Virus record (IMG/VR): IMGVR_UViG_3300045988_155182
From: a virus
Lineage: Duplodnaviria > Heunggongvirae > Uroviricota > Caudoviricetes
DNA length: 64,000 nt
Reading direction: 5' to 3' (one strand)
Numbering within the stretch: position 1 is the first letter of the stretch; every line of letters starts with the position of its first letter. Positions 6,495-59,406 of the stretch are shown piece after piece. The position numbers were made by a program, and so were the translations under genes. The notes below the pieces were generated by a model that had not been told where the DNA came from, did no database searches, and saw only the letters and a program-made list of their open reading frames with translations.

Positions 6495-6529
6495 AAAAAA
6501 GCGCCCATAGTGGGCGCTCGATTTTATTT
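6495..6529. terminator. Bidirectional terminator (gcgcccatagtgggcgc flanked by A-run and T-run)
   Basis: Same 17 bp hairpin repeated at 6772-6788. Confidence 0.55.
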
Positions 6530-6754: not shown

Positions 6755-6765
6755 GATTAAGCTCC

Positions 6766-6790
6766 TTAAAAGCGCCCATAGTGGGCGCCA
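6766..6790 (-). terminator. Terminator for the 6802..7452 gene (gcgcccatagtgggcgc + T-run on minus strand)
   Basis: Seen directly. Confidence 0.5.
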
Positions 6791-6801
6791 GATTCCATTA
6801 A

Positions 6802-7452
6802 TTACGCTTTGAAAGCATCAGCCAGATAGTTATAGAAATCATTTTTAATAAAGCGATATTGCTGCGTACCAGCTTTTGCGCTTCCCATTCCTTTGACTTT
6901 CTCAACAAGTCCAAGACGTTCGCAAAGATTGATAAGCTGGTTGGCTTGAGTGTATCCTGCGTCTAATTTTATTTCGTTGGCTTTTTTCGCTTCATTCATT
7001 AAATCGAAAACAGCGCCATTTGTGAACGTCTCGATCTCGTCGTTAATCATATCGATTAATGCGAATACACGAGATCCGGACATATCAGCGACGGAATAAA
7101 CACACTTTCCAGCTTTAATGGATTTAACCAGATAAACCAGTTTTTCCAGAGAATAACTGTTAGTCATTGCATCACGGAAAAAAACTTCTGGCGCTTGTTT
7201 GCTTGCTTTGATCGCATAGTAGAAAACAGAGCATAATTTTTCGTCTTCTACAGCGTTTACAACGTTGTTGATGAAGTAAGCAAGTTTAGTGGTCGCAGCT
7301 TGCATATTTGCTTTGTCTGCTTTAGTGTGCGTACCATTTTTATAATGTTCGTTATATGTTTGAGTTGCCAGATCTGCTTTTTCGCGCAGTTCATCGGATA
7401 CAATGGAAGCAGCTTCAATGATGGATTTTTTAGAAATGATAATGTTAGCCAT
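6802..7452 (-). CDS. Hypothetical protein (216 aa), AT-rich, own transcription unit
   Basis: ORF track; AT-rich upstream region 7453-7735 and terminators on both sides. Confidence 0.55.
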   Translation of the reverse strand: MANIIISKKSIIEAASIVSDELREKADLATQTYNEHYKNGTHTKADKANMQAATTKLAYFINNVVNAVEDEKLCSVFYYAIKASKQAPEVFFRDAMTNSYSLEKLVYLVKSIKAGKCVYSVADMSGSRVFALIDMINDEIETFTNGAVFDLMNEAKKANEIKLDAGYTQANQLINLCERLGLVEKVKGMGSAKAGTQQYRFIKNDFYNYLADAFKA

Positions 7453-7735
7453 GATAATTTTTCCTTATGTAAATTTAAAATTTATTGTCGTTAGCGTCTT
7501 CGCTTTCGACGAGTTCAATTATCGATATGCGAAAAAAGATTGCAAGTGTTTTTTTAAATTTTTTTGCAGGGATGAAAGTCCTAGAAATAAAAGCGAGATC
7601 GTCGAAGGTGTTCCCTAAATAAATAATCGATTCCGGCTTTAGACCTTATATATATTTAGGTTATTTGATTTATAGATATAAAGAAGTGATGTGAAAAATA
7701 ATAACCGGACTTAGCCGGTTATTAACCTTATAGAT

Positions 7736-8044
7736 TTATTGAACAGACTCTACAGCCTTACGATTGGTGTCAAATAGCGCATCAACGAACTGTGCCGATG
7801 ACTCGCTAGATTCGCAATCCAACATTGCCCGTTCTTCATTTGCCACTTTCTTACACAGTTCCACACTCTCACCTATCGCTTTTCCTGCTTTTACGGCTGC
7901 CGAAAATTGATACATGCAAACTGATACATTCTGAGACGTTGAGCACACGTCATTCATCAGCGACTGAATGACAGGCTTATAGTCCATTGCATTTGCCGCA
8001 ACTGAGCAAAGTAAAAATAATGGTGGTAACAATATCGATTTCAT
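7736..8044 (-). CDS. Secreted/periplasmic small protein with N-terminal signal peptide (MKSILLPPLFLLCSVAANA)
   Basis: ORF track; hydrophobic N-terminus with ANA cleavage-like site; several Cys residues. Confidence 0.5.
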   Translation of the reverse strand: MKSILLPPLFLLCSVAANAMDYKPVIQSLMNDVCSTSQNVSVCMYQFSAAVKAGKAIGESVELCKKVANEERAMLDCESSESSAQFVDALFDTNRKAVESVQ

Positions 8045-8047
8045 AAC

Positions 8048-8572
8048 TCAAAAAGGCAAAATTCGTTCAACCCAATCGAACAAAACAACTATTTTTCTAC
8101 CGTTCTCGACACGTAGTGTAACCTGACAAGCATCTGCGCCTGCTGACACCCCCTCAATTTCACGGCCATCCGCCATGTACACCCTTATAGATTTGTTTGC
8201 TTTGTAGGCTTGGTTGCAAATTGCAAAAAAATCGCGGCGTGATGGCCGATTATCGACATAATCAGGGTGAACTGTTAGTCGACCTTTGAAATCGTGAGCG
8301 ATACTGTCAAACACACCTGATTCAATGGTACTAATGCGTTCAAGTGGGAGCCTTATACGATTTTCTTTGTCAAAAGGGGCTGGGCAAAGGTCAACTTTGT
8401 TACGAGATGGCATGAGGCCATAAACGTACATGCAAAACGCCTGACCATCTTCGAGAGTGACCCTTACAGGAATTTGTTCTCTGCGCCAGAACATCAGTAG
8501 TTTTTCAACGTTAGTGTAATCTCGCGGCCAGAGTTCAGCTTGGATACCGTAGGTAATATCTTTGGTTGTCAT
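8048..8572 (-). CDS. Hypothetical protein
   Basis: ORF track 8048..8608; internal Met gives start/stop coupling with the upstream lipoprotein gene. Confidence 0.45.
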   Translation of the reverse strand: MTTKDITYGIQAELWPRDYTNVEKLLMFWRREQIPVRVTLEDGQAFCMYVYGLMPSRNKVDLCPAPFDKENRIRLPLERISTIESGVFDSIAHDFKGRLTVHPDYVDNRPSRRDFFAICNQAYKANKSIRVYMADGREIEGVSAGADACQVTLRVENGRKIVVLFDWVERILPF

Positions 8573-8576
8573 GTCA

Positions 8577-9041
8577 TCACAGAGTTGTTGGCAGAATGTC
8601 GATGTCACCAGAATTGCTGGTGAACACCCTGAATGCTTTTGTGTCTCTATTCTTCAGAGTCGTTTCTCGCTCTTGACGAGCGGGGTTTAGAGCACATAAA
8701 CCTGCACCTTCAAGAGATGCACCCACAATTAATTCTCCGGCATTTAAATGGAAAGTCGCTTTTTCGCCTGTAGCCAGTTTTGCGACAGTTTCGCCGTTGA
8801 TGAAAATGGAAGCATCACATCCAGCTCCTACAAAACCTGTGTCTCTCATTACCACCAACGTAGCTGGCGCTGCGCTTTGATACTTGAACACTTTGGCCTG
8901 CGGTGCTGGTTTGGCGTCATGGATTGATATTGGGCGTGATTGGCACGCGGTAAGCATCAACACTGGTAACGTTAGTAGAGGGAGAAGCGAGTATTTCATG
9001 ATAGTTTTAGAACAGAAAGTGAACAGTATGGGAGACTTCAT
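8577..9041 (-). CDS. Putative lipoprotein (lipobox LTAC); candidate superinfection-exclusion protein
   Basis: ORF track; hydrophobic segment followed by L-T-A-C; start ambiguous (9041 has GGGAGA RBS; Met at 8999 gives a shorter, more typical signal peptide). Confidence 0.5.
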   Translation of the reverse strand: MKSPILFTFCSKTIMKYSLLPLLTLPVLMLTACQSRPISIHDAKPAPQAKVFKYQSAAPATLVVMRDTGFVGAGCDASIFINGETVAKLATGEKATFHLNAGELIVGASLEGAGLCALNPARQERETTLKNRDTKAFRVFTSNSGDIDILPTTL

Positions 9042-24789: not shown

Positions 24790-27700
24790 ATGTCACAAAA
24801 CGTAGAGTTTATCCTGTCGCTGGAAGACAAACAGTTTACAGCGTCAATCGATCGTGCGGGGAAACTGCTTACTCGATTTGGTGAGCAGGTAACAAAGCCT
24901 GCTCAAAAAATCCAAACCTTTGAACGCTCTTTGGGTTCGGTCGCCCGTATCATTGGCGTTCTGGAAAGCAAGCTCGATTCTACGGCAGATAAACTACAGG
25001 ATGTAGCTGCCGGTTTTGAGCTTGCTTCAGATGCTACGCGTAAAATGCGTGGCAACATCACCAGCCTCAATTCTGGTCTTAAAGCCCTGATTGAGCGCGT
25101 CGATACGACAACTTCTTCAGTAGATAAACTCACCGCGTCATTACGTAAAGTGCAATCAGAGCTAAATGATTTCTCTGATTGGGCGACCTATGCAAGCAAA
25201 AGCGCAAGCCGCTTTGGTACGGAGGTCAAAGAAGCCTCTGCGTCCGTGAGTGGCATGAATACGCGCCTTAATACCACGACGAAGCGACTCAGTAATTGGG
25301 GTGTCACAACGAGTCAGGCTGCCGAGGGACTGAAAAAGGTTCGTGAGCAGATGGACGAAGTTATCGGACGTCAGCAACTGATTAGCAAGCCGGTACGCGT
25401 TCGTACATCTGGAAGTGGCGATGGTGGTAGCGGGCGGCGTAGCGGCGCTTCTGGCCATAGCGGTAAAAGTAACGAAGGAGGTATGTTCTCTGGCCTTCGT
25501 GGCAACATTTTCCTGCTTGGCGAGATCGGAGATGCAGCCAGAACGGTTACTGACATCATGTTTGGGTGGCAGAAGCCTATTGTTGAAGCTGCGGCCGAAA
25601 TGGAACGTATGCGGGTGATGCTTCGAGGGTTGAATAAGGAGAAGTCCAACCCGGGCCAGGCTGCCGCTGATGATATGAAGTACATCGTAGACATGGCGCA
25701 AAATGCGCCGTTCGCGATGCAGGCGTTAACAGATTCCTTCGTGAAGTTTCGTTCTGCTGGCTTAGATCCAACCGATGGTTCTCTGAAGGCGCTGGTGGAC
25801 TCCGTTGCTCGTTTTGGTGGTGATAGTGAGCTGTTGAAACGTGCGGCTGTGGCCGTTCAGCAGATGTCCGGTAAGGGCGTTGTGTCAATGGAAGAGCTAC
25901 GTCAGCAATTAGGTGAAGCCGTTCCTAACGCGATGCAGGCAATGGCAGACGCAGCAGGCATCACTATGGGGGAACTGACTAAAGCCGTTGCCAGCGGTAC
26001 GGTTGAGGCAAAACAGGCGTTGTCTCTGATGTTTGTTGGTCTGCGTGCGGAGAATGAGAACGCAGCGAAAGACATGATGCAAACCTACACAGGTGCGCTG
26101 GCGCAACTTCAGACGTCATTCACGTTATTTGCTGATCGGGTTGGTCAGGCCGGATATCTGGATTCTCTATCGAAGGGGATGAAAGAACTGGCTTCAATCA
26201 TGAATAGCGCCGAAGGGATTTCGTTTGCCAATTCTTTAGGCTCGGGGTTAACGACGGCAATCGATGGGTTGCGTCAGCTTGCTCAATGGTTAGCAAAGAA
26301 CCAAGAGCTGGTAATTAATCTCGGTAAGGTCGTGGCCGCGATGGTTGCGTTCAAACTGATGCGAGCAGGGATCATGGGGGTAGTTGGCGCAGGCAGCCAG
26401 ATGGTTAGCACCTTTGCCACGATGGCGACCGCCATACAGACTCCATTTAACCTCGGCGCTACAGCAGTAACCCGATTCAATCGTGCGGCACGTATGGGGC
26501 TGGCTCCGATCCCCTCTCTTATTTTCGCCATCCGTGGGGCGATTACGGGGCTTAAAGGCGCTTTTGCTGGATTAACGGCGTTCATTGCGGCAAACCCTAT
26601 AGGGGCAGCATTTACAGTCGCCACTGTAGCTGTTGCTGGCCTAATCACGTACATGACCATGCTCCGCAGCGAAACTTCAAAGGTCGTTGACGAGATTAGG
26701 AAAATACCAGAGGCGATGACGGCGGCCAAACGTGCACAAATGGCCGACCGCGCAGAAAAGCTCGAAAAGCAGATTCTTGCTGATCAACGAGCATTAAAAA
26801 CTGGTGAGGGTGTTAATTACGTATCTAACTCTGCCGGTGTTATTACTCACAAAGAGTCGAAGGCTGACATCGAAGCACGCCTGAAAAAAAATCAGGAAGA
26901 GTATCAAAAGATAACCGGCACGATAGCTCTTGGTGACGGCGCTGTAGCAAAGCGTTTGGCTAAAGAGGCTGCCGAATCTCAGATTGAGAAAATTCGAGCG
27001 GAAAACCAGATTTTCGCGGCAACATTCGTGAAAGCCCGGCAGGAGGCTCTGGATAAGATCCAGAAAATCAATGATGACGGTTCACTTTCAGATGACGAAA
27101 AGAACAAGCTATTGGCACCGTTACGTGAAACGGTAAACAAAAGCTATCTGGAGCCTGCGCAAAAACTGGTTGATTCACTTTCTTCTCGTAAGAATGCGAC
27201 CGAGAAGCAAATTGCGACTCTTAATGATCAGCTTGAAAAAGCCAAAAAGGATGGAAATACCGAGCAGATCCAGAAACTGCAAGGCAGTATTCGTGGTTAT
27301 CAGGAGCATTTGGAAGCCGTTGCTCAGGAGCTGACTCAGGCAGAGTTCGAGAGAGATAACGCGGCCAAAACTGGTAAGGGCGTAATGTCAAACCAGGGGA
27401 CTGTTCTTGGGTTAGGTACAACTGATAAAGCTGCTCAGAAGGCGCTGGCGCAATATATGCGAAACCAGATGGATTCTGCGACTTATCAGCGTACTTTGCC
27501 TGACGGCACTCCGATGATGGACTTCGAAGGTAAGCCGATTATTGGGCCTAAACAACTCAAGACGCAGCTTAATTTGCAGAAAGCATCCAGTGCCAGCTCT
27601 CTGGAGAAAATGAGCGATGAAGAGCGTGCCGCAGCCATTGCTGCACTGACTAAAGCTCGTGAACAGGATGCAGCAGCTGCCGAGAAAGCAGCCCAACGAT

Positions 27701-29361
27701 CAGCTAACGCCTCGCAGCGTGCGGCCAAGAAGGAACAGGCAGCGCAACAGAAACTGGCAGCCGGATACCAGAAGGCTCTGGACAAAGCCGATCAGCTTAT
27801 GGGGCAAATGGGTGAAAGCTCTAAGGCTACGGTATCGTTTGATCAGTCTCTTCGCGATACAACGAAATCGCTGACAGATTTGGCTAATGCGGTTCCTAAC
27901 GAGTTCATCACTCAAGAGATGATCGACAAGGCGAAAAAACGTCTTGAAGACCTCAAAAATGCGACACCTGAATATCGTGAGATGTTTAATCGCCGCAATG
28001 TTGAGCAGATGATCTCCACTTGGGCACCGGAGGCGGATTCCATTATTAGTGCTGGCTATACGCCGTCTCGCGAAGAGAAAGTTGCTGATTTCGAAGACAC
28101 CTACAACCGCAATCTCAAAGCGTTGATAGAACTTCGTGATAAGGCGTCTGATCCTAAAGTTGTGGCGCTTTATACAAAGAAAATCAATCAACTGATTGCT
28201 GCTGGCAATACCGCGCTTATTAAAGAGACGGGGACTGCGACGCAGAAGTTGGCACTGGAATACGAAAATCTGGCAGAGCAGATCGAAAGCACCTGGACTG
28301 ATTTGTTTAGTGGCTTAACTGATGTCCTGACTGATTTCGTTATTAACGGGAAGATGAGCTTCTCCAGCCTATCTCAGTCCATTTTGAAAGATATCACCAA
28401 TATGGTCGTGAAGTCGCAGATCACGCTGCCTCTAATGAACATGTTGGGGATGGGAACCACCGCAGCTGGTAGTTCACAGAGTGGTAATTTGCTCACCGGG
28501 GTTGCTTCCGCAGTTGCCAATCAAGGTGTGCGCATAAGCAACACTGTTAATGGCGACAAGTCGGTAGGAGAAGCCACGAAGGAGACGTCCAGTTCGGTAA
28601 CTGGATTGGGGCAAACGACACAGCAGACCACCAGCGCAATTGGCACAGCAACAAATGCGATTGGTAGCTGGGTATCAGGGCTATTTAATAGCACCGAAGC
28701 CAAAGATGCTGAGACAAAAGCAGTGAAGGACTCCATCTTCTCGATGCAGAACCTCAGCTCTGTTACCGGCGCTCTGTCTGCCGCGTTTGCAATGCTTGGA
28801 GCTAATGCTTCCGGCTCTGGTAATAAGTGGTTGAATTTCGGCGCGACAGTTGCATCTGGTTTGGTTTCAGTATGGGCTGGTGGTGGATTCGATGGATTGA
28901 TGTCCGGTTCTTCTGGCTCAACTTCCGGGTTCAACAATCTGACCAGTTCTGCTGCCGATGGCACGAATGGTATTCCTGCAATTCCGAAGTTTGCAAATGG
29001 TGGCATATTCGGAAAAGACGGCGTGATCCCGCTCCGGGCATACCAGAAAGGCGGTATCGCCAACTCACCTCAATTGGCGTTGTTTGGGGAAGGCGATATG
29101 AATGAGGCGTATGTTCCATTGCCTGATGGTCGAACAATCCCTGTAACGCTCAGTACCGATGGTATGAGTGGAGGAGGAAATGTTCTTTCTCCGGTATCAA
29201 TTGAGATCAACGTCCATAGTGACGGTAGCACAACTGAATCCGGCGATACAGAAAGCATATGGAACAATGCCGCTCAACGGATGAAAGCAATCGCGCTTGA
29301 GACTATCGCTCAAGAGAAACGCCCTGGCGGATCACTCAACCCAAACACTCAACGTAACTAA
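24790..29361 (+). CDS. Tail tape measure protein (about 1520 aa)
   Basis: Size, helical/Ala-rich composition, position; ORF track 24769..29361 begins at TTG, ATG at 24790 preferred. Confidence 0.85.
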   Translation: MSQNVEFILSLEDKQFTASIDRAGKLLTRFGEQVTKPAQKIQTFERSLGSVARIIGVLESKLDSTADKLQDVAAGFELASDATRKMRGNITSLNSGLKALIERVDTTTSSVDKLTASLRKVQSELNDFSDWATYASKSASRFGTEVKEASASVSGMNTRLNTTTKRLSNWGVTTSQAAEGLKKVREQMDEVIGRQQLISKPVRVRTSGSGDGGSGRRSGASGHSGKSNEGGMFSGLRGNIFLLGEIGDAARTVTDIMFGWQKPIVEAAAEMERMRVMLRGLNKEKSNPGQAAADDMKYIVDMAQNAPFAMQALTDSFVKFRSAGLDPTDGSLKALVDSVARFGGDSELLKRAAVAVQQMSGKGVVSMEELRQQLGEAVPNAMQAMADAAGITMGELTKAVASGTVEAKQALSLMFVGLRAENENAAKDMMQTYTGALAQLQTSFTLFADRVGQAGYLDSLSKGMKELASIMNSAEGISFANSLGSGLTTAIDGLRQLAQWLAKNQELVINLGKVVAAMVAFKLMRAGIMGVVGAGSQMVSTFATMATAIQTPFNLGATAVTRFNRAARMGLAPIPSLIFAIRGAITGLKGAFAGLTAFIAANPIGAAFTVATVAVAGLITYMTMLRSETSKVVDEIRKIPEAMTAAKRAQMADRAEKLEKQILADQRALKTGEGVNYVSNSAGVITHKESKADIEARLKKNQEEYQKITGTIALGDGAVAKRLAKEAAESQIEKIRAENQIFAATFVKARQEALDKIQKINDDGSLSDDEKNKLLAPLRETVNKSYLEPAQKLVDSLSSRKNATEKQIATLNDQLEKAKKDGNTEQIQKLQGSIRGYQEHLEAVAQELTQAEFERDNAAKTGKGVMSNQGTVLGLGTTDKAAQKALAQYMRNQMDSATYQRTLPDGTPMMDFEGKPIIGPKQLKTQLNLQKASSASSLEKMSDEERAAAIAALTKAREQDAAAAEKAAQRSANASQRAAKKEQAAQQKLAAGYQKALDKADQLMGQMGESSKATVSFDQSLRDTTKSLTDLANAVPNEFITQEMIDKAKKRLEDLKNATPEYREMFNRRNVEQMISTWAPEADSIISAGYTPSREEKVADFEDTYNRNLKALIELRDKASDPKVVALYTKKINQLIAAGNTALIKETGTATQKLALEYENLAEQIESTWTDLFSGLTDVLTDFVINGKMSFSSLSQSILKDITNMVVKSQITLPLMNMLGMGTTAAGSSQSGNLLTGVASAVANQGVRISNTVNGDKSVGEATKETSSSVTGLGQTTQQTTSAIGTATNAIGSWVSGLFNSTEAKDAETKAVKDSIFSMQNLSSVTGALSAAFAMLGANASGSGNKWLNFGATVASGLVSVWAGGGFDGLMSGSSGSTSGFNNLTSSAADGTNGIPAIPKFANGGIFGKDGVIPLRAYQKGGIANSPQLALFGEGDMNEAYVPLPDGRTIPVTLSTDGMSGGGNVLSPVSIEINVHSDGSTTESGDTESIWNNAAQRMKAIALETIAQEKRPGGSLNPNTQRN

Positions 29362-44254: not shown

Positions 44255-44776
44255 TTATTCTTCGAACAATTTTTCGATAGATTTTGTAGGATAGAACAAA
44301 GAACGCTCGTTGTTACCAACCAGCTGGATAAAGCCTAAACTTTTATAAAACGCCTTGGCTTTGTCATTTAACGCCTCAACGAAAAGTCCATGAATGCCTA
44401 CAGCAAGAGATGCATTGTACACAACGCGCATTGCATGTGTTACAAGCATTGAGCCAAATCCTTGACCTTGAAGGGACTTGTCCAAAGCCAGCCTACCCAA
44501 AGTAACACTTGGAACATTCCGATAAGGAACCTTCTTTTGTTTGCTTCTTGAAGGTAAGGACTCCTTTTCAAAACAACTACCTGACAAAGTGTAATATCCT
44601 AACACTTTTGGCCTTTCTTCTTGAGTGCAAAGCACATAAGCACGAAGAATTTTTCCCTCATGCTGCCTTTTTAAGTGGTTGGCTAAAAAGGCGTTTAGTG
44701 ACTCTTCGCCGCAATCAAAACCGTTTAGATCATAATCTTTCTCTCCAGAGAAAATCTCTATCGTTGTATTGCTCAC
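44255..44776 (-). CDS. GNAT-family acetyltransferase toxin (TacT/AtaT/KacT-like)
   Basis: GNAT motif RLALDKSLQGQGFG; about 170 aa; paired with upstream RHH gene. Confidence 0.75.
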   Translation of the reverse strand: MSNTTIEIFSGEKDYDLNGFDCGEESLNAFLANHLKRQHEGKILRAYVLCTQEERPKVLGYYTLSGSCFEKESLPSRSKQKKVPYRNVPSVTLGRLALDKSLQGQGFGSMLVTHAMRVVYNASLAVGIHGLFVEALNDKAKAFYKSLGFIQLVGNNERSLFYPTKSIEKLFEE

Positions 44777-44783
44777 GAGTAAA

Positions 44784-45053
44784 CTACTCCATGCTTTTCA
44801 GACGATCAGCAGCTCGTTTCAGCTTGTCGTTCGGTGCCGGAGGATTGCTTATAGCGTCCATAACCAGATTCCAGGATTCTTCATTCAGAACTAGTCTACG
44901 GTGTTGCTCTATAACTTTCACGGCACGTTCAGATGCACTGCTAACCATAAACTGAGTAATGCTCTGGTTAGACATTGCGGCAGCTTCCTCGATGATGCTT
45001 TTATCGTCATCGGTTAATCTCAAATCGATGCGCTGCTTTTTTAGTGCTGACAT
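44784..45053 (-). CDS. RHH antitoxin (TacA/DUF1778-like) of the GNAT toxin
   Basis: ORF track 44784..45092; small protein immediately upstream of and co-directional with the GNAT gene. Confidence 0.7.
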   Translation of the reverse strand: MSALKKQRIDLRLTDDDKSIIEEAAAMSNQSITQFMVSSASERAVKVIEQHRRLVLNEESWNLVMDAISNPPAPNDKLKRAADRLKSME

Positions 45054-45319
45054 GTATTCCTCCTGATGGCCGTGATGTAGGAAGGCCATCAATCTCCTCT
45101 GTTCAAACTGAGTTTTCGACTCAAAAATTACTTTAAAAGGCTATAGCCCATTACGTGTGCATTATCAAATTGTGTACGGCATAACACCGTACTTGTAATA
45201 TAGAGGTCATTGTTACTTTTTTCAACAGACAAATACAAGCTATGATTGCCAATTGTTAATCACAACCTACCATTTAACCTTTACACCGCAGCCGTAGGCA
45301 TTTAGGCTATATCACATAT

Positions 45320-45371: not shown

Positions 45372-46040
45372 ATGACCAAGATCTTTGTGGTTGGCGGCAC
45401 AAAGGGCGGGCCTGGCAAATCCACCGTTGCCCAGCAAATTGCCGTTTGCCTGAAAGTCAAAAAGAAGAAGAAGGTTTATATTACCGATATAGATATTCAG
45501 CGCACGACAACGAGCTGGTGTGAAGACCGTCGACAGAACGAAGACCTTGAGCTGATTCCTTTTGCATACGTTCAGGATGACATCATTAAGCACCTAAAAT
45601 CGCTTCAGGGTAGAGCTGAGTTTGTAGTGGTAGATGCTGGTGGCTTCGACTCCGAAATTCAGCGACAAGCGATGCTGATGGCCGACGTTATCATTATCCC
45701 GCTTCGTCCTAAGCGTCGTGATTTGAAATCTCTGCGTGATATCGATCCTATTATCGACAATGTTCGTAATGTAAACGATAAAGTGAAGGTCCGCGCGGTC
45801 ATGAACCAGTGTCCGGCTTTGCCATCACAAGTGTCTCGCATTCTGGCGGCTAAAGAGATTGTTGAGACGTTTGGCATCGAGTCTGCGCCAGTCAATCTAT
45901 ATAACCGCAACGTCTATGATGATGCGGAAGAGTCTGGTCGTTCTATCTTTGAAATGACCGGTAGCGAGCGCGACAAAAAGGCGGAAGCCGAGTTTGAAGA
46001 ATTTGTAGATTATCTGTTGAGTCTGGAGGAAAAAGAATAA
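45372..46040 (+). CDS. parA: ParA partition ATPase (deviant Walker A)
   Basis: VVGGTKGGPGKST deviant Walker A typical of ParA/MinD/Soj. Confidence 0.8.
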   Translation: MTKIFVVGGTKGGPGKSTVAQQIAVCLKVKKKKKVYITDIDIQRTTTSWCEDRRQNEDLELIPFAYVQDDIIKHLKSLQGRAEFVVVDAGGFDSEIQRQAMLMADVIIIPLRPKRRDLKSLRDIDPIIDNVRNVNDKVKVRAVMNQCPALPSQVSRILAAKEIVETFGIESAPVNLYNRNVYDDAEESGRSIFEMTGSERDKKAEAEFEEFVDYLLSLEEKE

Positions 46041-46399
46041 TGTCCATGAAAATGGGTGACCTAGCAAAGCGCAAAGAGCCTGATGCACCGGCTAAGAACA
46101 CAACTCCTTTGCGCCAACCAGTCAGACCACAGGGACGCCCGACTCGTGGCAAAGAGAAAATTAAAAGCCGCACAATGTCACTGGAGGACGAATACTTCGA
46201 ACTGCTGGAGATGATGAAGTTCATCCCTCGCTTCGAGAAGTTCACTCGTTCTGACGTGATTCGTGCTGCTATTTTCCATCTTGCGGAGAAGACACCGCAG
46301 GAAATCGAGGACATCGTGAAACTTAACGAGGCGATCACCGCTGCCGATGTCACGATGCGTACCGATGAAATCAAACGCGAGTTGATGAAGAAAGGTTAA
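46040..46399 (+). CDS. Small partition partner, ParG/RHH-type centromere-binding protein (putative)
   Basis: ATGA overlap with parA; basic N-terminus and RHH-like C-terminus. Confidence 0.5.
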   Translation: MSMKMGDLAKRKEPDAPAKNTTPLRQPVRPQGRPTRGKEKIKSRTMSLEDEYFELLEMMKFIPRFEKFTRSDVIRAAIFHLAEKTPQEIEDIVKLNEAITAADVTMRTDEIKRELMKKG

Positions 46400-46406
46400 T
46401 TTTATT

Positions 46407-46432
46407 GAGGTGCTGCTTGGCACCTCTTTCTA
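46407..46432 (+). terminator. Rho-independent terminator after the partition operon (gaggtgc-loop-gcacctc + TTTCT)
   Basis: Seen directly. Confidence 0.5.
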
Positions 46433-46443
46433 TAGGTTCCCTA

Positions 46444-47163
46444 ATGCTCTACAAATATATTGGAAGTGAAGATTCGCAAAAAGTGTTACGTAACCTCAAA
46501 CGGTTTGTAGAGGACGGCACTATCTCTGCTAGCGCACCTTCTTCATTCAACGACCCATCAGAGTTCAAAGTTTCGATAACGATGGGAGGTACAGAAGTGG
46601 AGCGCCGGAAACACTTTGAAGACAATGGATGTAAGGATTTTTCCTTTGAAGACTGGGATGCTGTAGCTCCTGAAGCTGCAAAATCGTTGGCTGTGGATTT
46701 GCGGAAAGAATCATTAGGGGCTTTTGGTGTGGTGTGCTTGTCACCAAACGAAGATAACATCTTGATGTGGTCACATTACTCAGTGTCGCATAAAGGTTTC
46801 TGCATAGGCTTTGATGATGATTTTGTTACCTCTATTGAGGGGTATCACAGCTTTGATAATGTGAAATATATACCTTCTGTTCCCGTGTTCGATGAAGTTA
46901 CAGATGAGTTTAAGGTACTTTTTGATAAGCTCTTTTTCTACAAGCACGAATGCTGGAAATATGAGGAAGAACAAAGGGTTATTACTAAAAAAATAGGCGC
47001 TCAGGCATTTGATAAGAAATATATTAGAGAGATCATTCTTGGACATAACGTTTCTCCTGAAGTAGAAGAATATGCCCGGACACAGCTAGACACGAGCATC
47101 GAGGTTTACAAAATGAGTACACCTGATGATGGTTATCTTCTTGTCAAAGAAAAGCTGAAGTAG
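46444..47163 (+). CDS. Hypothetical protein, DUF2971-like (uncertain), AT-rich
   Basis: ORF track 46405..47163; starts MLYKY, has MWSHYS and GFCIGF segments that I associate with DUF2971 from memory; follows a terminator. Confidence 0.45.
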   Translation: MLYKYIGSEDSQKVLRNLKRFVEDGTISASAPSSFNDPSEFKVSITMGGTEVERRKHFEDNGCKDFSFEDWDAVAPEAAKSLAVDLRKESLGAFGVVCLSPNEDNILMWSHYSVSHKGFCIGFDDDFVTSIEGYHSFDNVKYIPSVPVFDEVTDEFKVLFDKLFFYKHECWKYEEEQRVITKKIGAQAFDKKYIREIILGHNVSPEVEEYARTQLDTSIEVYKMSTPDDGYLLVKEKLK

Positions 47164-47229
47164 CTCCAGACTTTCCTCAAATGATTATGTTGGGCGCTTT
47201 TCTTATTGAACTGGTTAGTGAGGCTAATA

Positions 47230-48402
47230 ATGGATTTGTTCTCAACCAAAATAGCAAAAAACAAGCTGCACGAATCTTTTAAACAGATTTATCAAGATAA
47301 TACATATGCTCCAGTAAGAGAAGTGATACAGTCGTGGGGGCGTGGGTTACTGGAGCGTAGCGGTGAGCAGACTAAATTCGTTAAAGAGTTTCAGACAACC
47401 TTCAATTCCGCCTTATGGGAATTGTATCTGAACGAAATGTTTATTCGTCTCGATTATTCTGTCGACTACACAAAAGACAGTCCCGATTTCTGTGTTACTA
47501 CACCGTCAGGCTACCAGTTTAACGTCGAAGCTGTGATATCAGATCGGCCACATAATCCACCTGCAGGTGTTCTTTTTAGCGAATCAAAATTCAAACATCA
47601 ATCAACGCTAAAATTAATCGGAAAAATCAAAGACAAACATGATCTTTTTACAGGAGTTAATGGCAAAAAATTCCCGTACTCTACGATGTCTCATGTAGTT
47701 AATAAGCCGTTTGTTCTGGCGCTTGCACCCTTTGACTCCGATTTATCATTGTCTCAAAATAACACAATCATCAATCGAGTGTTGTTTGGCATTGAGGAAC
47801 CTACCACCAGAAATTTGGTGACTGGCAGCCAAACTAAAGTTACCTCAATCAAAAAGAATGAAGACGTTGAAATTCCATTAGGTATATTTACTAACGACTC
47901 ATATAAAGAAATAAGTGCGGTTATTTTCTCCACCACCGGCACTTTTGGAAAAGCCGTGGTTCAAAGCGGTATCGGTAGATATGTAAGGTCAACACGATAT
48001 CGAGCCATTGATGTGAATGATTTTATCGCCAATGAAGGGATGAAAAACGAGGGAAAGCACACACAAAGGATAGGACCTGATCATTTCATCACTACATATC
48101 GGCATTTTTTAAATAACGAAGTCACTGGTGCGGATATTGTAGTTTGTCATTCCACTGCTCATGAAGAGACGCACTTTGACGGCCTTCATATTTACTACAA
48201 TCCTTTTGCGACAGTGCCACTGGACAGAAATATTTTCTTCCCCCCAGAGATAACTCATAATTTTTACGATATGGAAAAAGAACAGTCTGTTCAGAATCAT
48301 CCTGATGGAGCGCTGGTATCTAGACAGGTTTTTGAACCAACTAGAGCACATTTTAGGTATATCATGAAACATTGGTTTCCAGGCTTTCTAAAAGATGTTT
48401 AA
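47230..48402 (+). CDS. Hypothetical protein (390 aa), AT-rich, no recognised motif
   Basis: ORF track 47206..48402; ATG at 47230 behind GAGG. Confidence 0.5.
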   Translation: MDLFSTKIAKNKLHESFKQIYQDNTYAPVREVIQSWGRGLLERSGEQTKFVKEFQTTFNSALWELYLNEMFIRLDYSVDYTKDSPDFCVTTPSGYQFNVEAVISDRPHNPPAGVLFSESKFKHQSTLKLIGKIKDKHDLFTGVNGKKFPYSTMSHVVNKPFVLALAPFDSDLSLSQNNTIINRVLFGIEEPTTRNLVTGSQTKVTSIKKNEDVEIPLGIFTNDSYKEISAVIFSTTGTFGKAVVQSGIGRYVRSTRYRAIDVNDFIANEGMKNEGKHTQRIGPDHFITTYRHFLNNEVTGADIVVCHSTAHEETHFDGLHIYYNPFATVPLDRNIFFPPEITHNFYDMEKEQSVQNHPDGALVSRQVFEPTRAHFRYIMKHWFPGFLKDV

Positions 48403-48426
48403 GCATCCTGCTGGTTGAATTTGGAA

Positions 48427-48480
48427 CCTGCTTCTGTATATAAATACTAAGTTACTTATTATTATTTATACGGAAGCAGG
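48427..48480. repeat. Long imperfect palindrome (copy of the 14189-14245 element) centred on TAAGTTACTTA
   Basis: Both copies share the ctgtatat(a)taaata / tatacggaagcagg flanks around a central TAAGT(A/T)ACTTA core. Confidence 0.55.
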
Positions 48481-48566
48481 TCTTTTTCTATGCCAACTTC
48501 CCAGACACATTCCCTTCCGTTTCCACTTCCAAAAACTGCCACCAGTCGCTATCATCCGCTCATTGC

Positions 48567-55375: not shown

Positions 55376-56122
55376 TTTTATGTATAAGATGACTTTGTTT
55401 TCGTTGAGACGCGACTGTTTGAACTTAAATACAAGTGCAAACGAAGAAGTCTATCTGGCAGTAGCCTAATAAGCCAAACACCAGCGAGGTCAGTTTCCAG
55501 CCTCGTTACCGAAATGGGATACACTGAGCGAGTGTGATTACAGAACGCAGGAGGGAACATGAATGTTCCCTCCGATGAAGTAACAGAATGGGCGGTTGGT
55601 ATATTTTCAACTCCATATGACTCCCGGATTCTTAGCCACTGACCGCCCATCCTGTTACGTCATTTTGTTCAATTATGTCGTTTATACTGGGTTAAAAAGC
55701 GGCGACGTAGCCCGGCTGGTATGGTTAGCCAGCACACAACGTTGAGGCCATTACATTTTTATCAATTCTAAGGTTCTATTCACAGAGATACCGGCGAGCG
55801 TTGATATGTAACATGTTGGGCAAACATTCAATCGGAGTAGTGGCCTCAACGTTGTGAAGACAGGATTGTTGTGTAGGTTTAACCACTGTTGCCATTGGTG
55901 CCTGTTTTCACAACAAATGATTCCATACATCACATTGTATAAATTACAAAGTAGGTGCTGTCCTCAGAAACATCATCTACTTAAAGAGTTTGCCTTCTAC
56001 TATTGAGCGAAGTCGAAAGCGTCTGGCACTAACGAAAAGTGCAAGTAGCGGTGCGTTTCCTGGCAGAAACTAAACCGTCGCGATTGGCACTGTTGAGTAA
56101 TGAATACAGGCAGTGCTGAATT

Positions 56123-56197
56123 GATGGTGTAGCTCAGCGGTAGAGCAGTTGGCTGTTAACCAACTGGTCGGTGGTTCGAATCCACCCACCATCGCCA
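56123..56197 (+). tRNA. tRNA-Asn (anticodon GTT)
   Basis: Acceptor stem gatggtg/caccatc, anticodon loop cTGTTAa, T-loop GGTTCGAATCC, encoded CCA. Confidence 0.8.
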
Positions 56198-56199
56198 AT

Positions 56200-56275
56200 G
56201 CCGGTTTAGCTCAGTTGGTAGAGCGCCTGCCTTGTAAGCAGGATGTCAGCGGTTCGAGTCCGTTAACCGGCACCA
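56200..56275 (+). tRNA. tRNA-Thr (anticodon TGT)
   Basis: Acceptor stem gccggtt/aaccggc, anticodon loop cTTGTAa, T-loop GGTTCGAGTCC, encoded CCA. Confidence 0.8.
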
Positions 56276-56498
56276 ATACAACGATAAGATCATTACGGTT
56301 AATCGTCGTTCATGTGCACAATGACTGGTCGAAAGGTAGTGATCTTACCGTTGTGGTGGATTCGCAGACTGATGCGATAGCTTTCTTGGATGTTAGGGAA
56401 ATGCGGCCGCAAATCTTCCCTTTCGCGAGCGGTGATCGTCCGTAGTCCTAATTGGCTGCACCGTATGCCGGAGATTCAGTACCGGCCACCACAACGGC

Positions 56499-56585
56499 CG
56501 GAGAGTAGGGAGCATGGTGCTCAAGCGGTCTTGAAAACCGTCCCATTGCGCAAGCGATGATGGTTCGATTCCATTACTCTCCGCC
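56499..56585 (+). tRNA. tRNA-Ser (anticodon TGA), type II with long variable arm
   Basis: Acceptor stem ggagagt/actctcc, anticodon loop cTTGAAa, long variable arm, T-loop GGTTCGATTCC, encoded CCA. Confidence 0.7.
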
Positions 56586-56586
56586 A

Positions 56587-56665
56587 GACACAGCGTTGAG
56601 CGGTTTGGCCTTTTAATCAACTCGATTAAGACTCCGCTAACATAAACCAGACCGCTCAACGCTGT
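56587..56665. repeat. Perfect 16 bp inverted repeat (cacagcgttgagcggt ... accgctcaacgctgtg) with about 46 nt loop, directly after tRNA-Ser
   Basis: Seen directly. Confidence 0.6.
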
Positions 56666-56740
56666 GATAGACAATTACGGCAGACGTTCTTAACCATAGC
56701 TTGCTAACATCCTAGCAACACTTTTTTAAGCGCAAAATCC

Positions 56741-56766
56741 AAAGGGGCTTCGGCCCCTTTTTTGTT
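56741..56766. terminator. Bidirectional terminator (aaaggggc-ttcg-gccccttttttt)
   Basis: Seen directly; sits between the tRNA cluster and the convergent minus-strand gene. Confidence 0.6.
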
Positions 56767-57673
56767 AATGATTGCCTAGATATGATTTTAGTTCTTCTTT
56801 AATGATTAGTGAGTATTCTAAAATATCACTTAGTAAAAATTTTGCTCTGTTAAAATACCCACCAAAAGAACCTAAAATTTCAGATGGTCTTTCTAAGAGC
56901 ATCACAATATCATCTTCTTGCACTTTAGTAATGTAACTTCTAACAGCTCTTTCTCCAATAACTCTTTTCTTACCGTTTATTTCAGATTCATCTAAAACCT
57001 TATTTATAAATTTTTCTGTATCATTGAATCGTCCACTATTGTGTACTATTGTATGTCTTAGTAGTTCAATTAGCTTGATGTTAAAGCGATAGTTTTTGCC
57101 AATCTTGTTGTTTGTTTCTATCTCTTTGAAGCCAGGTATTTTATTTCTGAAAATTTTAGTTATTTTTTTCGATGGGTTACTTTTTGCTTTTAATAATCTG
57201 TAATAAACTTCCCTTTTCCCAATTTCATCATCTTCAACCTTACCAAAATCACTTGAGGACCATAAATCATTTCGAACACATACAGTATAGACATATATTG
57301 CCTCAATATAGTCTTCCAGTAACTCATAGGCTTCAGTAATAACCCACTGATATTGTTTATTTTTCAAAGTATTACACAATCTTATCTTTTCTTCTAAATC
57401 AATGGCGCTGTTACCTATCTCTAATGTTGAACCTGTATATGGGTTTGAACATAAATGGCGAGCTAACGTTGTGCCACACTTAATCTTAATAGTTTCATTA
57501 ATATTAATAATAGTATCTGGATTCTGTGCATACTCCACTTCTTTAAGAAGACGTTTTATATTTTTCTTTGTTGTATCATTTATCTGATTTAAATAGTCAA
57601 AAAGTAAAGATATTTCTTCTCTAAATTCGTTGTATTTATTTTCAATCAAAGAATCAGACAACTTACCAATCAT
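56765..57673 (-). CDS. HEPN-like / Abi-family candidate protein (302 aa), AT-rich
   Basis: Rx4H motif (LLRHTIVHNSG) in the C-terminal half; only minus-strand gene in this block; markedly AT-rich, Lys/Asn/Ile-rich. Confidence 0.45.
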   Translation of the reverse strand: MIGKLSDSLIENKYNEFREEISLLFDYLNQINDTTKKNIKRLLKEVEYAQNPDTIININETIKIKCGTTLARHLCSNPYTGSTLEIGNSAIDLEEKIRLCNTLKNKQYQWVITEAYELLEDYIEAIYVYTVCVRNDLWSSSDFGKVEDDEIGKREVYYRLLKAKSNPSKKITKIFRNKIPGFKEIETNNKIGKNYRFNIKLIELLRHTIVHNSGRFNDTEKFINKVLDESEINGKKRVIGERAVRSYITKVQEDDIVMLLERPSEILGSFGGYFNRAKFLLSDILEYSLIIKEELKSYLGNH

Positions 57674-57758
57674 TAAAACCTCTATAAAATGTACATTTCA
57701 AGGCAATCCTTACTGTAATCTATTGTCGTAATCACTTCAATTGTTTACTAGTCAATCA

Positions 57759-57780
57759 ATAAGTTACTACATACTTATCA
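57759..57780. repeat. TAAGTA palindrome variant (aataagttactacatacttatc)
   Basis: Seen directly. Confidence 0.45.
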
Positions 57781-57846
57781 AAAAAATCTGTTTGTAGTAT
57801 AGTCTGATATGTTCGAATCAATATTTATAAAGGTATTTGTTAAGTT

Positions 57847-58092
57847 ATGACGATCACTATCTACGGACGAGATAACTGCTCATACTGCAAACGTGCGGTC
57901 GAGCTGGCGAAGCAACTAAAGGGACATGGCTACGGTGATTATGAGTACATCGACATCACCACTGCCGGTATCGACAAGGAAAAACTAAGTGAAATTGTTG
58001 GTAAACCGGTAGAGACTATCCCCCAGGTGCTGATCGATGGCCAGCCGATTGGCGGATACACAGAACTGGCTGCATACGTCAGCACCCTCTGA
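57847..58092 (+). CDS. Glutaredoxin / NrdH-like redoxin (81 aa)
   Basis: CSYC active-site motif near the N-terminus; size. Confidence 0.7.
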   Translation: MTITIYGRDNCSYCKRAVELAKQLKGHGYGDYEYIDITTAGIDKEKLSEIVGKPVETIPQVLIDGQPIGGYTELAAYVSTL

Positions 58093-58096
58093 TTTT

Positions 58097-58125
58097 AACG
58101 GCTCACAGGAGCCGTTTTTATTCCC
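58097..58125 (+). terminator. Rho-independent terminator (aacggctc-acag-gagccgtt + TTTTT)
   Basis: Seen directly. Confidence 0.6.
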
Positions 58126-58172
58126 ACCAAACTCACTCCCATTTCCCTTAAAATTCAAAAAACAACGTCAAA

Positions 58173-58205
58173 ATGATTCCATACCTACTATGTATGGAAT
58201 CATTG
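58173..58205. repeat. Perfect palindrome aatgattccatac-ctactat-gtatggaatcatt; the 13-mer also occurs near 54903 and 55920
   Basis: Seen directly; about 100 bp upstream of the integrase gene. Confidence 0.55.
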
Positions 58206-58302
58206 CTGAAAATGAGTTACTTTTACTCTTGATCCTATAAGAATCTATGCCTAATATACTGTTTACTTATACAGTGCATCGGCGTAACTCGGTGATTGTC
58301 AT

Positions 58303-59406
58303 ATGAAAAATAGCTTTGACAGAGCACGCGCTGCGGAGAACACCTCAAAAGAGGCGATAGAGTATCTCGAAAGAGCATCTCAAATGCAGGCCGTTATGAT
58401 CTCCCAGGTCAGCAATGACATGAGATTCTCGGACGCATTCATGTTATTCACTCGCTTATCTCTGCTGATAACCAGACGTCGGCCAGAGATCGCTGTTCAT
58501 TGTATTTTGATACATGTTTTGCCGCACATTGCCGATGTAAAAGTAAGTGACATTAATAGGTTCATGGTGAACCAACTGGTCAACCCACTAATACTGGATG
58601 GCAAAATTGTTATGGGCCGCCGCGTTTTCTCTCTGATGAAGCAGTTCCTTAGCTGGTGCGCCTTCCAGGGGATGATAGACGTGTCACCGTTGAACGATAT
58701 GTCACTTAACAAAGTTGCCGGTGGCGCAAAGCCCACACCTCGCGAGCGGAAGCTGACCGACGCAGAGGTATGGGTGTTCTGGAATATATGGGACTACTTC
58801 AATGTGTGTGCTGGTACAAAATGGGCGGCCAGGCTATGTCTTGTATCCGCAAGACGACCTGACGAAGTACTGCGGGCTAAAAAAAGTGAGTTCAATCTTA
58901 AGCGTGGGGTTTGGAATCAAGGCAAGAGGAACAAATCTGCCCGTGAGCATTCTCTGCCTTTAAGCTCATTAATGCGCACTTGTATTGAAGAGTTGTTCGA
59001 ATATGGTAAAGACAGCCAGTGGCTCGTGCCTTCGAATAAAAAAATCGGGAAAGACCTTCCTATGTCTAAAGTGGCAATAGCCCAGGCATTACGTCGTATT
59101 CTGGAACGACCAGAACTGATGGAGCTTGAGCCATTTACACCCCGAGATTTGCGCCGTACTGCGCGTAGTTACTTCCCAGCATTAGGCATAAGCCAGGAGG
59201 TATCACGTAAAATCATGAACCACAGTCTTGAGGGGATAGATCGGGTCTACGACCGGCACGATTATATGGACGAGATGCGAGACGCCTTAGAAAGTTTCTC
59301 GACGTACATCGCATCAATCGTAGAGCAACCGGATTTAGACGAAATTGACCACAAATTTAAGGGAGATCGTCTATCAACAGAGCTTATTCGTGTAAATTTT
59401 TCATAG
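58303..59406 (+). CDS. int: Tyrosine-type integrase/recombinase
   Basis: C-terminal catalytic pattern (RDLRRTARSYF ... HSLEGIDRVYDRHDY) consistent with the R..H..R..Y tyrosine recombinase signature. Confidence 0.8.
   Translation: MKNSFDRARAAENTSKEAIEYLERASQMQAVMISQVSNDMRFSDAFMLFTRLSLLITRRRPEIAVHCILIHVLPHIADVKVSDINRFMVNQLVNPLILDGKIVMGRRVFSLMKQFLSWCAFQGMIDVSPLNDMSLNKVAGGAKPTPRERKLTDAEVWVFWNIWDYFNVCAGTKWAARLCLVSARRPDEVLRAKKSEFNLKRGVWNQGKRNKSAREHSLPLSSLMRTCIEELFEYGKDSQWLVPSNKKIGKDLPMSKVAIAQALRRILERPELMELEPFTPRDLRRTARSYFPALGISQEVSRKIMNHSLEGIDRVYDRHDYMDEMRDALESFSTYIASIVEQPDLDEIDHKFKGDRLSTELIRVNFS

Follow-up and report, generated by a model that had tools for sequence, protein, structure and literature searches.

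The two AT-rich genes that separate the partition operon from the replication module in the stretch of viral DNA analysed here (64,000 nucleotides, hereafter the window) are, as judged by sequence comparison, cargo that occupies a variable slot in an E. coli phage-plasmid of the SSU5 type, and it is likely that the two genes represent independent single-gene anti-phage modules stacked within that slot. The window belongs to the SSU5 supergroup of E. coli phage-plasmids, plasmid pHXH-2 being 99.9% identical over the 7 kb that was compared. The finding is real and largely known, and there is little at the locus that is new in kind: the downstream gene (gene B) represents a validated system already listed for SSU5 elements, and the upstream gene (gene A) a catalogued defence candidate. 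The features of the locus are as follows.

46407–46426, + strand: terminator-like hairpin (terminator scan), part of the backbone and not of the cargo
46444–47163, + strand: gene A, 239 aa, ATG start (ORF call)
46468–48425: variable segment, cargo relative to the backbone of phage Cyrano (local blastn)
47164–47229, + strand: spacer between genes A and B, 66 nt
47230–48402, + strand: gene B, 390 aa, 1173 nt (ORF call)
48426–48482, + strand: long imperfect palindrome (repeat search)

Every feature described in an earlier note, which was prepared from the sequence alone, proved to be present where it had been placed or within a few bases. Both of the AT-rich open reading frames that it had proposed were found, with a GC content across 46444–48402 of 0.398, as opposed to 0.461 for the whole window; values as low as that of the block occur in only 3.5% of equally long segments.

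Gene B and the PD-T7-5 family

Comparison of gene B with the PADLOC model for PD-T7-5 (PDLC04110) returned a match with E = 1.8e-139 and 462.6 bits, in which residues 1–371 of the protein align to positions 1–342 of the 346 in the model. DefenseFinder likewise has a model for this system. On the strength of this alignment gene B is a member of the PD-T7-5 family, and probably a close orthologue of the validated protein, RRM82777.1 of E. coli UMB0934 (ORF 27110–28283; Vassallo et al. 2022, PMC9519451). The earlier note had seen no recognisable motif in gene B and had regarded its function as unknown; both statements are superseded by the full-length match to a family that has been experimentally validated as a single-gene system. 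The anti-T7 activity of PD-T7-5 is taken from that published work, in which the ORF was cloned alone with 143 nt of upstream and 119 nt of downstream sequence (PMC9519451). SSU5 phage-plasmids of clade J, from E. coli and Shigella, have also been reported previously to carry PD-T7-5.

The likeness between gene B and RRM82777.1 was judged by length and domain positions, and by these measures no difference is shown: the two are of the same length and carry a nuclease-like segment at the same residues, and gene B matches the family model from end to end. Gene B in the window is preceded by a DUF2971 gene. RRM82777.1 is absent among the accessions listed for the cluster to which gene B belongs, and the original PD-T7-5 contig, RRWJ01000050, is absent among 10 sampled contigs that carry the exact gene B sequence. 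The N-terminus (MDLF) is retained among homologues, and a GAGG motif is located 8 nt upstream of the ATG.

Alignment of gene B with its homologues revealed that E64, P85–D86 and E100 are invariant, and that E64, D86 and E100 fall within the residue range (59–107) in which HHpred matches to Hjc, FokI_C and PDDEXK nucleases were reported for the validated protein (PMC9519451). The position two residues after E100 in the putative PD-(D/E)xK motif is occupied by valine or methionine rather than lysine; K128 and K136 of the next helix are invariant and could substitute for the missing motif lysine. The N-terminal domain is described here as a PD-(D/E)xK-like candidate nuclease core, which is followed by a beta-rich C-terminal domain. 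A Foldseek search of the gene B model against the PDB gave insignificant hits only, profile searches against PDB sequences yielded no structurally solved relative for either gene's family, and NCBIfam holds no model for gene A or gene B.

PD-T7-1, described in the same study as PD-T7-5, is a related system. Residues 1–241 of gene B align to positions 108–347 of its model (E = 4.4e-42), and a weak Hjc/PD-(D/E)xK HHpred signal has been reported for PD-T7-1 at positions equivalent to those in PD-T7-5 (PMC9519451). However, PD-T7-1 has an additional N-terminal region of ~107 residues and a different C-terminus, and gene B scores far better against PD-T7-5.

If the two genes act independently, gene B would function as a self-sufficient PD-T7-5 protein, with E64, D86 and E100, together with K128/K132 from the following helix, as candidate catalytic residues. 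Infection by a T7-like phage would release the nuclease activity and phage replication would be stopped, the beta-rich C-terminal domain perhaps serving to sense the infection or to gate the nuclease.

Gene A and the DUF2971 family

The ATG at 46444 was taken as the start of gene A because the resulting N-terminus, MLYKY, is conserved in the alignment of homologues; a longer TTG start, at 46405, falls within the terminator hairpin. The suggestion in the earlier note that the protein is DUF2971-like is borne out by a Pfam match (PF11185) of 30.1 bits, which lies above the gathering score of 22. The PADLOC check that the same note had proposed for both proteins assigned gene B to PD-T7-5, as described above, and gene A to PDC-S31, four models of which are matched (best E = 4.7e-38, residues 2–234). 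A literature search found PDC-S31 mentioned in none of the papers covered and returned no experimental anti-phage data for enterobacterial members of DUF2971. Going by its 'PDC' candidate name, PDC-S31 is not known to be a validated system.

All of the 15 invariant columns in an alignment of 50 DUF2971 sequences are intact in gene A, among them W109-S-H111-Y112 and Y173-E174-x-E176-x-R178; an ExE-like motif (E174 and E176) and invariant tyrosines are present. The first strand has Y3-K4-Y5 where a clear histidine would be expected for motif I of the H-Y-E ADP-ribosyltransferase (ART) class; motif I is poorly conserved in DUF2971 (PMC12522546). The best structural matches to a confident model of gene A are four DarT structures and other ARTs, and the protein is predicted from this model to have an ADP-ribosyltransferase-like fold closest to that of the DarT DNA ADP-ribosyltransferases, in keeping with the published prediction that DUF2971 proteins are DarT/AbiGi-like ARTs (PMC12522546). 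Identity to non-enterobacterial DUF2971 proteins in the sampled family is 23–33%.

Gene A differs from DarT in having large helical inserts and in the histidine of motif I, which is not conserved. It does not match DarT's own Pfam family, DUF2971 being the only family found, and a Pfam search revealed no DarG macrodomain antitoxin beside it, its neighbours being a parB-like gene and PD-T7-5. Aristaios, a lactococcal single-gene abortive system with a DUF2971 domain, has been validated (PMC11381338; PMC13064643), and it is from this work that anti-phage activity of a DUF2971 protein is known. Compared on the basis of the published description, gene A is likewise a stand-alone gene with a DUF2971 domain and a predicted ART-like fold, whereas Aristaios is larger (316 aa as opposed to 239 aa), its host is Gram-positive, and it was assayed at high copy number.

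A homologue of gene A with 52% identity is found alone in P2-like prophages, between the tail-fibre assembly and sheath genes. From the P2 map, we take this position to be the fun locus. Vassallo et al. (2022, PMC9519451) described the P2 fun locus as a second defence hotspot of P2.

Gene A begins 17 nt past the terminator hairpin, and no promoter is evident for it, promoter-like hits in the region being no commoner than in shuffled sequence. Two weak promoter-like sites are located within the 3' end of gene A (47009–47036 and 47087–47114), and are recorded as leads only.

As an independent module, gene A would respond to infection by NAD+-dependent ADP-ribosylation of nucleic acid or of an essential protein, and this modification may abort phage development as has been proposed for lactococcal Aristaios. 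In the plasmid state, the two present alleles, if active, would together guard the host, and hence the element itself, from competing phages.

Boundaries and occupants of the parB–rep slot

The hairpin at 46407–46426, which is followed by TTTCTATA, has a predicted folding energy of -13.5 kcal/mol (z = -3.05 relative to shuffled sequences). The earlier note had placed a terminator of the parA operon at 46407–46432, and indeed the hairpin and its T-rich tail close the parA/parB-like operon. The hairpin is backbone rather than cargo, and is contained within a stretch 98% identical to phage Cyrano that, in a local blastn comparison, stops at 46467; identity with the Cyrano backbone resumes at 48426. 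The exchange boundary is situated inside the conserved 5' end of gene A. A further edge, on the left of the mobile gene B module, was located at about 47216, since similarity to phage-plasmids that carry only gene B, and to Proteus and Yersinia prophages, begins at 47216–47226; 14 nt of upstream sequence, including the ribosome-binding site, travel with gene B. No terminator was predicted on the + strand of the spacer between the two genes, which folds no better than shuffled sequence (z = +0.67).

The palindrome at 48426–48482, which the earlier note had given as 48427–48480, consists of nested arms of 15 and 12 nt with a folding energy of -25.2 kcal/mol (z = -6.7; none of 200 shuffles folded as well) and is followed by CUUUUUCU. 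It was said to close the block, and it is indeed present there, but it is not the cassette's own: it is a conserved backbone element, retained, irrespective of the cargo, in all of the SSU5-type relatives that were examined. It is also found 3' of gene B in the Proteus and Yersinia prophages, and in 41 further E. coli plasmids it is the sole part of the query that is matched. The palindrome marks the right-hand boundary of cargo exchange and, together with the U-run behind it, probably serves to terminate + strand transcription of the slot. Integron attC sites have consensus core sites RYYYAAC/GTTRRRY. An attC-like identity was considered for the palindrome and rejected, as its outer ends lack such core sites and the U-run after the stem is terminator-like.

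The earlier note had proposed accessory or defence-type cargo for this position, and horizontally exchanged cargo of that type is indeed what is seen: in backbones that are ~98% identical, 46468–48425 is replaced by other genes, several of which also match defence models. In near-identical E. coli backbones the slot is instead occupied by PD-T4-3, by a KAP NTPase (PDC-S49) or by an unrecognised gene, the last being exemplified by a 352-aa gene in plasmid NZ_CP141583.1. Matches to DUF2971 were found in 309 plasmid records, most of them enterobacterial plasmids of ~105–125 kb, against 724 records that match the backbone; about one in three of the matching plasmids has a DUF2971 gene, very divergent in sequence, and such a gene is present also in phages SSU5, Cyrano and pJN2-26. 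The A-like alleles in the slot are only 39–54% identical while their backbones are 77–98% identical.

The slot, which extends from the parAB terminator to the conserved palindrome upstream of the replication genes, is a defence hotspot. It resembles known temperate-phage hotspots (P2 old/tin and fun, P4 psu-int) in that a fixed site flanked by conserved genes receives interchangeable, small, low-GC defence systems, but it differs in its location between parB and the replication genes of a phage-plasmid, with a terminator at one end and a conserved palindrome at the other. No paper describing the parB–rep slot was found in a literature search.

Independence or cooperation of the two genes

Gene A precedes gene B in each of the 11 PLSDB plasmids with these alleles, in 13 of the 5426 complete genomes of E. 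coli and in 10/10 sampled contigs. The co-occurrence that the earlier note had proposed to check therefore holds for the exact alleles, which are always linked, but not for their relatives, in which each gene is found without its partner. Cronobacter pCS1 and Salmonella phage-plasmids have gene B by itself in the slot, and an A-like gene is alone there in SSU5, Cyrano and Klebsiella phage-plasmids; one B protein that has an A partner shares 89% identity with another that lacks it. Since separation is seen both in this slot and elsewhere, A and B are separable, and the description of a two-gene cassette, if taken to mean an obligate unit, does not stand. In one further locus with the pair (L021), which at first sight lay outside any phage-plasmid, similarity to the window reaches ~150 nt upstream and 280 nt downstream; because these flanks also resemble the window, the locus may derive from a phage-plasmid backbone, and it was not counted as an instance of independent mobility.

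The alternative that survives best, although we consider it unlikely, is that A and B form one cooperative system in which an ART-like partner, of the DUF2971 or AbiGi type, acts as sensor, regulator or second effector. Within the enterobacterial clade of B (at least 73% identity), five of the seven sampled contexts have an ART-like gene 41–86 nt upstream on the same strand. Three of these are diverged DUF2971–B pairs (identities of 100%, 73% and 54% for A, and of 100%, 80% and 76% respectively for B) with spacers of 41–67 nt. The other two, in Proteus and Yersinia prophages of different backgrounds, have AbiGi followed by B with spacers of about 65–85 nt, AbiGi being the ART-like family nearest DUF2971 (PMC12522546). 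Moreover, the B module brings just 14 nt of upstream sequence and therefore relies on transcription from whatever lies upstream. Against cooperation, the validation of PD-T7-5 used one cloned ORF and just 143 nt of upstream sequence (PMC9519451), two phage-plasmid lineages have B in this slot with no A beside it, and many phage-plasmids and P2-like prophages have an A-like gene by itself. Among distant B loci a DUF2971 or AbiGi gene was found immediately upstream in 0/50, and within 4 kb of B in 0/80 fetched loci. The constant linkage of identical alleles would be expected in any event if a single phage-plasmid lineage had spread clonally.

The arrangement also brings AbiG to mind. Lactococcal AbiG consists of a ~250-aa protein followed by a ~400-aa protein, a layout similar to the ~240 aa and then ~390 aa encoded on one strand here, and in Proteus and Yersinia the gene in front of the B homologue is a true member of the AbiGi family. 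However, AbiG is listed as a two-component system, with AbiGii linked to the HEPN-like AbiUii and not to PD-(D/E)xK proteins (PMC13064643), whereas A and B occur apart. Neither A nor B gave a hit at E ≤ 1 to AbiGi or AbiGii models in Pfam or PADLOC; when gene A was compared by BLASTP with the AbiGi proteins of Proteus and Yersinia, E was 0.08–0.25, and in the fetched loci neither the DUF2971 nor the AbiGi profile matched genes of the other family. Membership of AbiG was rejected because no profile or BLAST link connects A with AbiGi or B with AbiGii, and because the two genes are separable.

A more elaborate form of cooperation, which we regard as doubtful, is that PD-T7-5 in Enterobacterales commonly forms the second gene of a modular two-gene operon in which an interchangeable DUF2971 or AbiGi protein upstream modulates or broadens the defence. 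It is equally doubtful that, for example, the upstream protein senses infection or ADP-ribosylates a phage factor that would inhibit the PD-T7-5 nuclease, and we would be as hesitant to propose that a promoterless cassette (47216–48482) moves between phage-plasmids and prophages with the palindrome as its recombination boundary.

It is improbable, too, that gene A serves the phage-plasmid itself, as an ART that reprograms or counters the host or excludes rival plasmids, leaving only gene B as a defence gene. Phage T4 provides a precedent in Alt, ModA and ModB, which are ADP-ribosyltransferases that act on the host. A large proportion of SSU5-type elements have a DUF2971 gene at this position, the exchange boundary falls inside its conserved 5' end as if it were a regular feature of the backbone, and gene A adjoins the replication module with no promoter of its own evident. 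Indeed, the caveat in the earlier note that the genes might prove to be conserved in related phages holds to the extent that a divergent DUF2971 gene is frequent in the slot, but nothing indicates a structural or replication role. Gene A is, however, dispensable, because it is missing from the slot of Salmonella and Cronobacter elements and of those E. coli elements that carry PD-T4-3 or the KAP NTPase. The divergence of its alleles within much more similar backbones is what would be expected of defence cargo that is exchanged or diversifying; gene A matches a PADLOC defence-candidate model, a close homologue lies in a putative P2 defence hotspot, and a DUF2971 protein is a validated Abi system (PMC11381338).

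A toxin–antitoxin or addiction module that stabilises the plasmid state, with one protein (ART or nuclease) as toxin and the other as antidote, would suit a pair placed directly 3' of parAB, the typical toxin chemistries of DarT-like ARTs and PD-(D/E)xK nucleases and the Pfam label of AbiGi as 'antitoxin', but is very improbable, since A and B each occur alone in many genomes, where an unneutralised toxin would not be tolerated, neither resembles a known antitoxin in Pfam searches (no macrodomain and no DNA-binding domain), and the element already carries a GNAT/DUF1778 toxin–antitoxin pair at 44255–45092.

Two independent anti-phage modules thus remain the favoured reading of the locus. The recurrence of an ART-like neighbour upstream of PD-T7-5 is nonetheless noteworthy. 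The enterobacterial DUF2971 clade presents an inexpensive candidate for DarT-like defence without an antitoxin, and the parB–rep slot, now delimited as a hotspot with defined boundaries, is a place in which to mine further candidates, such as the 352-aa gene of NZ_CP141583.1. Clinical E. coli, Shigella, Salmonella and Klebsiella commonly harbour SSU5-group phage-plasmids, and the cargo of these elements shapes which phages, therapeutic ones included, can infect their hosts.

Layout and setting of the cassette

The 7 kb around the block shares 99.9% identity with E. coli plasmid pHXH-2, 97-98% with phages Cyrano and CMS-2020a, cargo excepted, and ~83% with Salmonella phage SSU5, and on the basis of these identities the window was assigned to the SSU5 supergroup of phage-plasmids. 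Endolysin, Rz-type lysis genes, a minus-strand toxin-antitoxin pair, parA and a small parB-like gene lie upstream of the block, with a 249-aa gene, a DnaB-like helicase and a primase downstream. The earlier note had described an AT-rich two-gene cassette at 46405-48402, between the partition operon and the replication module, and ORF calls, folding and GC analysis recovered its hairpin, both AT-rich genes and the palindrome in place.

Features of the locus and its upstream flank
44255-45092, minus strand: GNAT-family toxin (173 aa) with DUF1778/TacA-type antitoxin, KacT-like in the Cyrano annotation
46407-46426, plus strand: hairpin with T-rich tail (terminator scan; -13.5 kcal/mol, z = -3.05)
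46444-47163, plus strand: gene A, ORF of 239 aa
Between genes A and B, plus strand: spacer of 66 nt
47230-48402, plus strand: gene B, ORF of 390 aa
48426-48482, plus strand: long imperfect palindrome (repeat search), followed by CUUUUUCU

Folding of the palindrome gave -25.2 kcal/mol (z = -6.7), with none of 200 shuffles equally stable. Alignment with homologues backs the starts of genes A and B, which have the conserved N-termini MLYKY and MDLF, respectively. GC content is 0.398 across the two genes versus 0.461 for the whole window, as low a value being found in just 3.5% of same-length windows, and a promoter scan of the region revealed no convincing promoter for gene A.

Several observations concern the remainder of the window. 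Other phage-plasmids with the identical A+B pair have two unrelated plus-strand genes (~139 and ~257 aa) in place of 44255-45092 upstream of parA, which makes this position a second variable slot. The small gene that follows parA (46040-46399) has no Pfam match and by position resembles a partition adaptor (parB-like); the label 'RelE/ParE putative toxin' that it carries in Cyrano is probably wrong. A 186-aa protein encoded at 8048-8608 (minus strand), in a low-GC stretch at ~6000-8700, matches Pfam Flag1_repress (E = 3.7e-84), a repressor of phase-1 flagellin (FljA-like), which suggests that the phage-plasmid may change host flagellin expression. The lowest GC of the window (down to 0.356) is at 55700-59100, within which lie:

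56123-56197: tRNA Asn-GTT
56200-56275: tRNA Thr-TGT
56500-56586: tRNA Ser-TGA
56765-57673, minus strand: 302-aa ORF
58303-59406: tyrosine recombinase

Family assignment of genes A and B

On sequence grounds, gene B belongs to PD-T7-5: residues 1-371 match the PADLOC model with E = 1.8e-139, and the N-terminal 241 residues also match the PD-T7-1 model. PD-T7-5 was found in E. coli UMB0934 through T7 selection by Vassallo et al., the validated ORF (27110-28283 on contig RRWJ01000050), equal in size to gene B, having been cloned as a single gene labelled 'Nuclease', flanked by 143 nt on its 5' side and 119 nt on its 3' side (PMC9519451). HHpred matches of the validated protein (Hjc, FokI_C, PDDEXK_5 and RmuC; probabilities 41-78%) fall at residues 49-107 (PMC9519451), a range covering E64, P85-D86 and E100, which are invariant among gene B relatives in a 40-sequence alignment. 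Matches to the C-terminal beta-rich half of gene B were uninformative. Among distant relatives, a 50% identical homologue on Agrobacterium plasmid pAoF64/95 (locus L015, 5228-6091) lies immediately 5' of a 'phage exclusion protein Lit family' gene, with a QueC-like gene and a DEAD/DEAH helicase nearby, a typical defence-island setting for the distant branch of the family.

Gene A matches Pfam DUF2971 above threshold and the PADLOC candidate PDC-S31 (E = 4.7e-38), and its predicted structure is confident (pLDDT 93.7). It keeps 15 invariant DUF2971 residues, including W109-S-H111-Y112 and Y173-E174-x-E176-x-R178. Gene A is predicted to encode an ADP-ribosyltransferase (ART)-like protein, in line with a published prediction that places DUF2971 in the H-Y-E clade of ARTs, close to DarT and AbiGi (PMC12522546). 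In Lactococcus, the DUF2971 protein Aristaios has been validated as a single-gene abortive-infection system and interferes with transcription of the phage (PMC11381338; PMC13064643); no experimental tests of enterobacterial DUF2971 proteins were found in the literature searched.

Linkage and separation of the two genes

A minority reading is that A and B act cooperatively. The exact alleles adjoin in all 11 PLSDB plasmids carrying either gene, in 13 of 5426 complete E. coli genomes (plasmid-borne every time) and in 10/10 sampled contigs, and their protein accessions are consecutive across E. coli, Salmonella, Citrobacter and Enterobacter. Two diverged pairs also occur, one in other E. coli phage-plasmids (A 54%, B 76% identical) and one at 73% and 80%, and in Proteus and Yersinia prophages an AbiGi-family gene precedes a 76-77% identical B homologue at similar spacing. 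However, B occupies the same slot without A in Cronobacter pCS1 and Salmonella phage-plasmids, where local comparison showed precisely 46455-47215 to be absent, and a B protein with A and one without can be 89% identical. Conversely, A-like genes occur in the slot without B in SSU5 (41% identity), Cyrano and Klebsiella phage-plasmids, and P2-like prophages carry a lone 52% identical A homologue between the tail-fibre assembly and sheath genes, which we take to be the fun locus. The fun locus is the second P2 defence hotspot of Vassallo et al. (PMC9519451). Moreover, DUF2971 or AbiGi was absent from 50 scanned ORFs upstream of distant B homologues and from within 4 kb of distant B at all 80 loci sampled from species-representative genomes, where the upstream genes are mixed (methylases, type I R-M subunits, SIR2, reverse transcriptase, integrases and transposases); the published PD-T7-5 clone, too, had one ORF. 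We conclude from these comparisons that A and B represent separable, often stacked modules.

A defence hotspot with defined edges

Local blastn identity to Cyrano ends at 46467, 24 nt inside the DUF2971 gene, and restarts at 48426, where the palindrome begins. The 57-nt palindrome is kept in all SSU5-type relatives examined regardless of cargo, and 41 further E. coli plasmids match the query in the palindrome alone. The left edge of the B module is sharp (~47216) in four different contexts, and a diverged palindrome copy lies 3' of the PD-T7-5 homologue in the Proteus and Yersinia prophages (L004, ~7200-7280; L005, ~7205-7285), similarity to the window stopping just past it. Given these edges, the mobile unit is essentially a ribosome-binding site, ORF and terminator, and transcription must originate upstream; besides probably acting as terminator, the palindrome may double as a recombination boundary. 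Near-identical E. coli backbones carry one of three alternatives in the slot: a GIY-YIG protein that matches PD-T4-3, a KAP-family NTPase of 568 aa with a match to candidate PDC-S49, or an opposite-strand 352-aa gene (L120, 2461-3519, minus strand; NZ_CP141583.1, 11143-12201), which has no Pfam or PADLOC match and is by position a candidate defence gene. The slot between parB and the replication genes is thus a defence hotspot with defined edges. On the 240-kb E. coli plasmid CP182204.1, an IS21-family element (transposase and IstB-like ATPase; L129, 5651-7452) sits just 3' of gene B, between slot and replication genes; the size of this plasmid, double the usual, suggests a cointegrate.

Gene B is already known, including in SSU5-type elements, and the family of gene A is a catalogued candidate in which one member, a distant one, has been validated. 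PD-T7-5 is listed among clade J systems, in E. coli and Shigella, in a 2025 preprint based on a DefenseFinder screen of >1200 SSU5-group contigs. Mechanistically, PD-T7-5 could be a PD-(D/E)xK-type nuclease gated by infection, its C-terminal domain being the likely sensor or gate, and DUF2971 may use NAD+ to ADP-ribosylate DNA, RNA or an essential protein and so halt phage development, with no dedicated antitoxin. To our knowledge, there is no description of the slot's delimitation as a defence hotspot, of its near-regular, very divergent DUF2971 alleles, or of the recurring ART-like neighbour of enterobacterial PD-T7-5; each is an incremental advance. Carried by a resident phage-plasmid, genes A and B would keep out competing phages.
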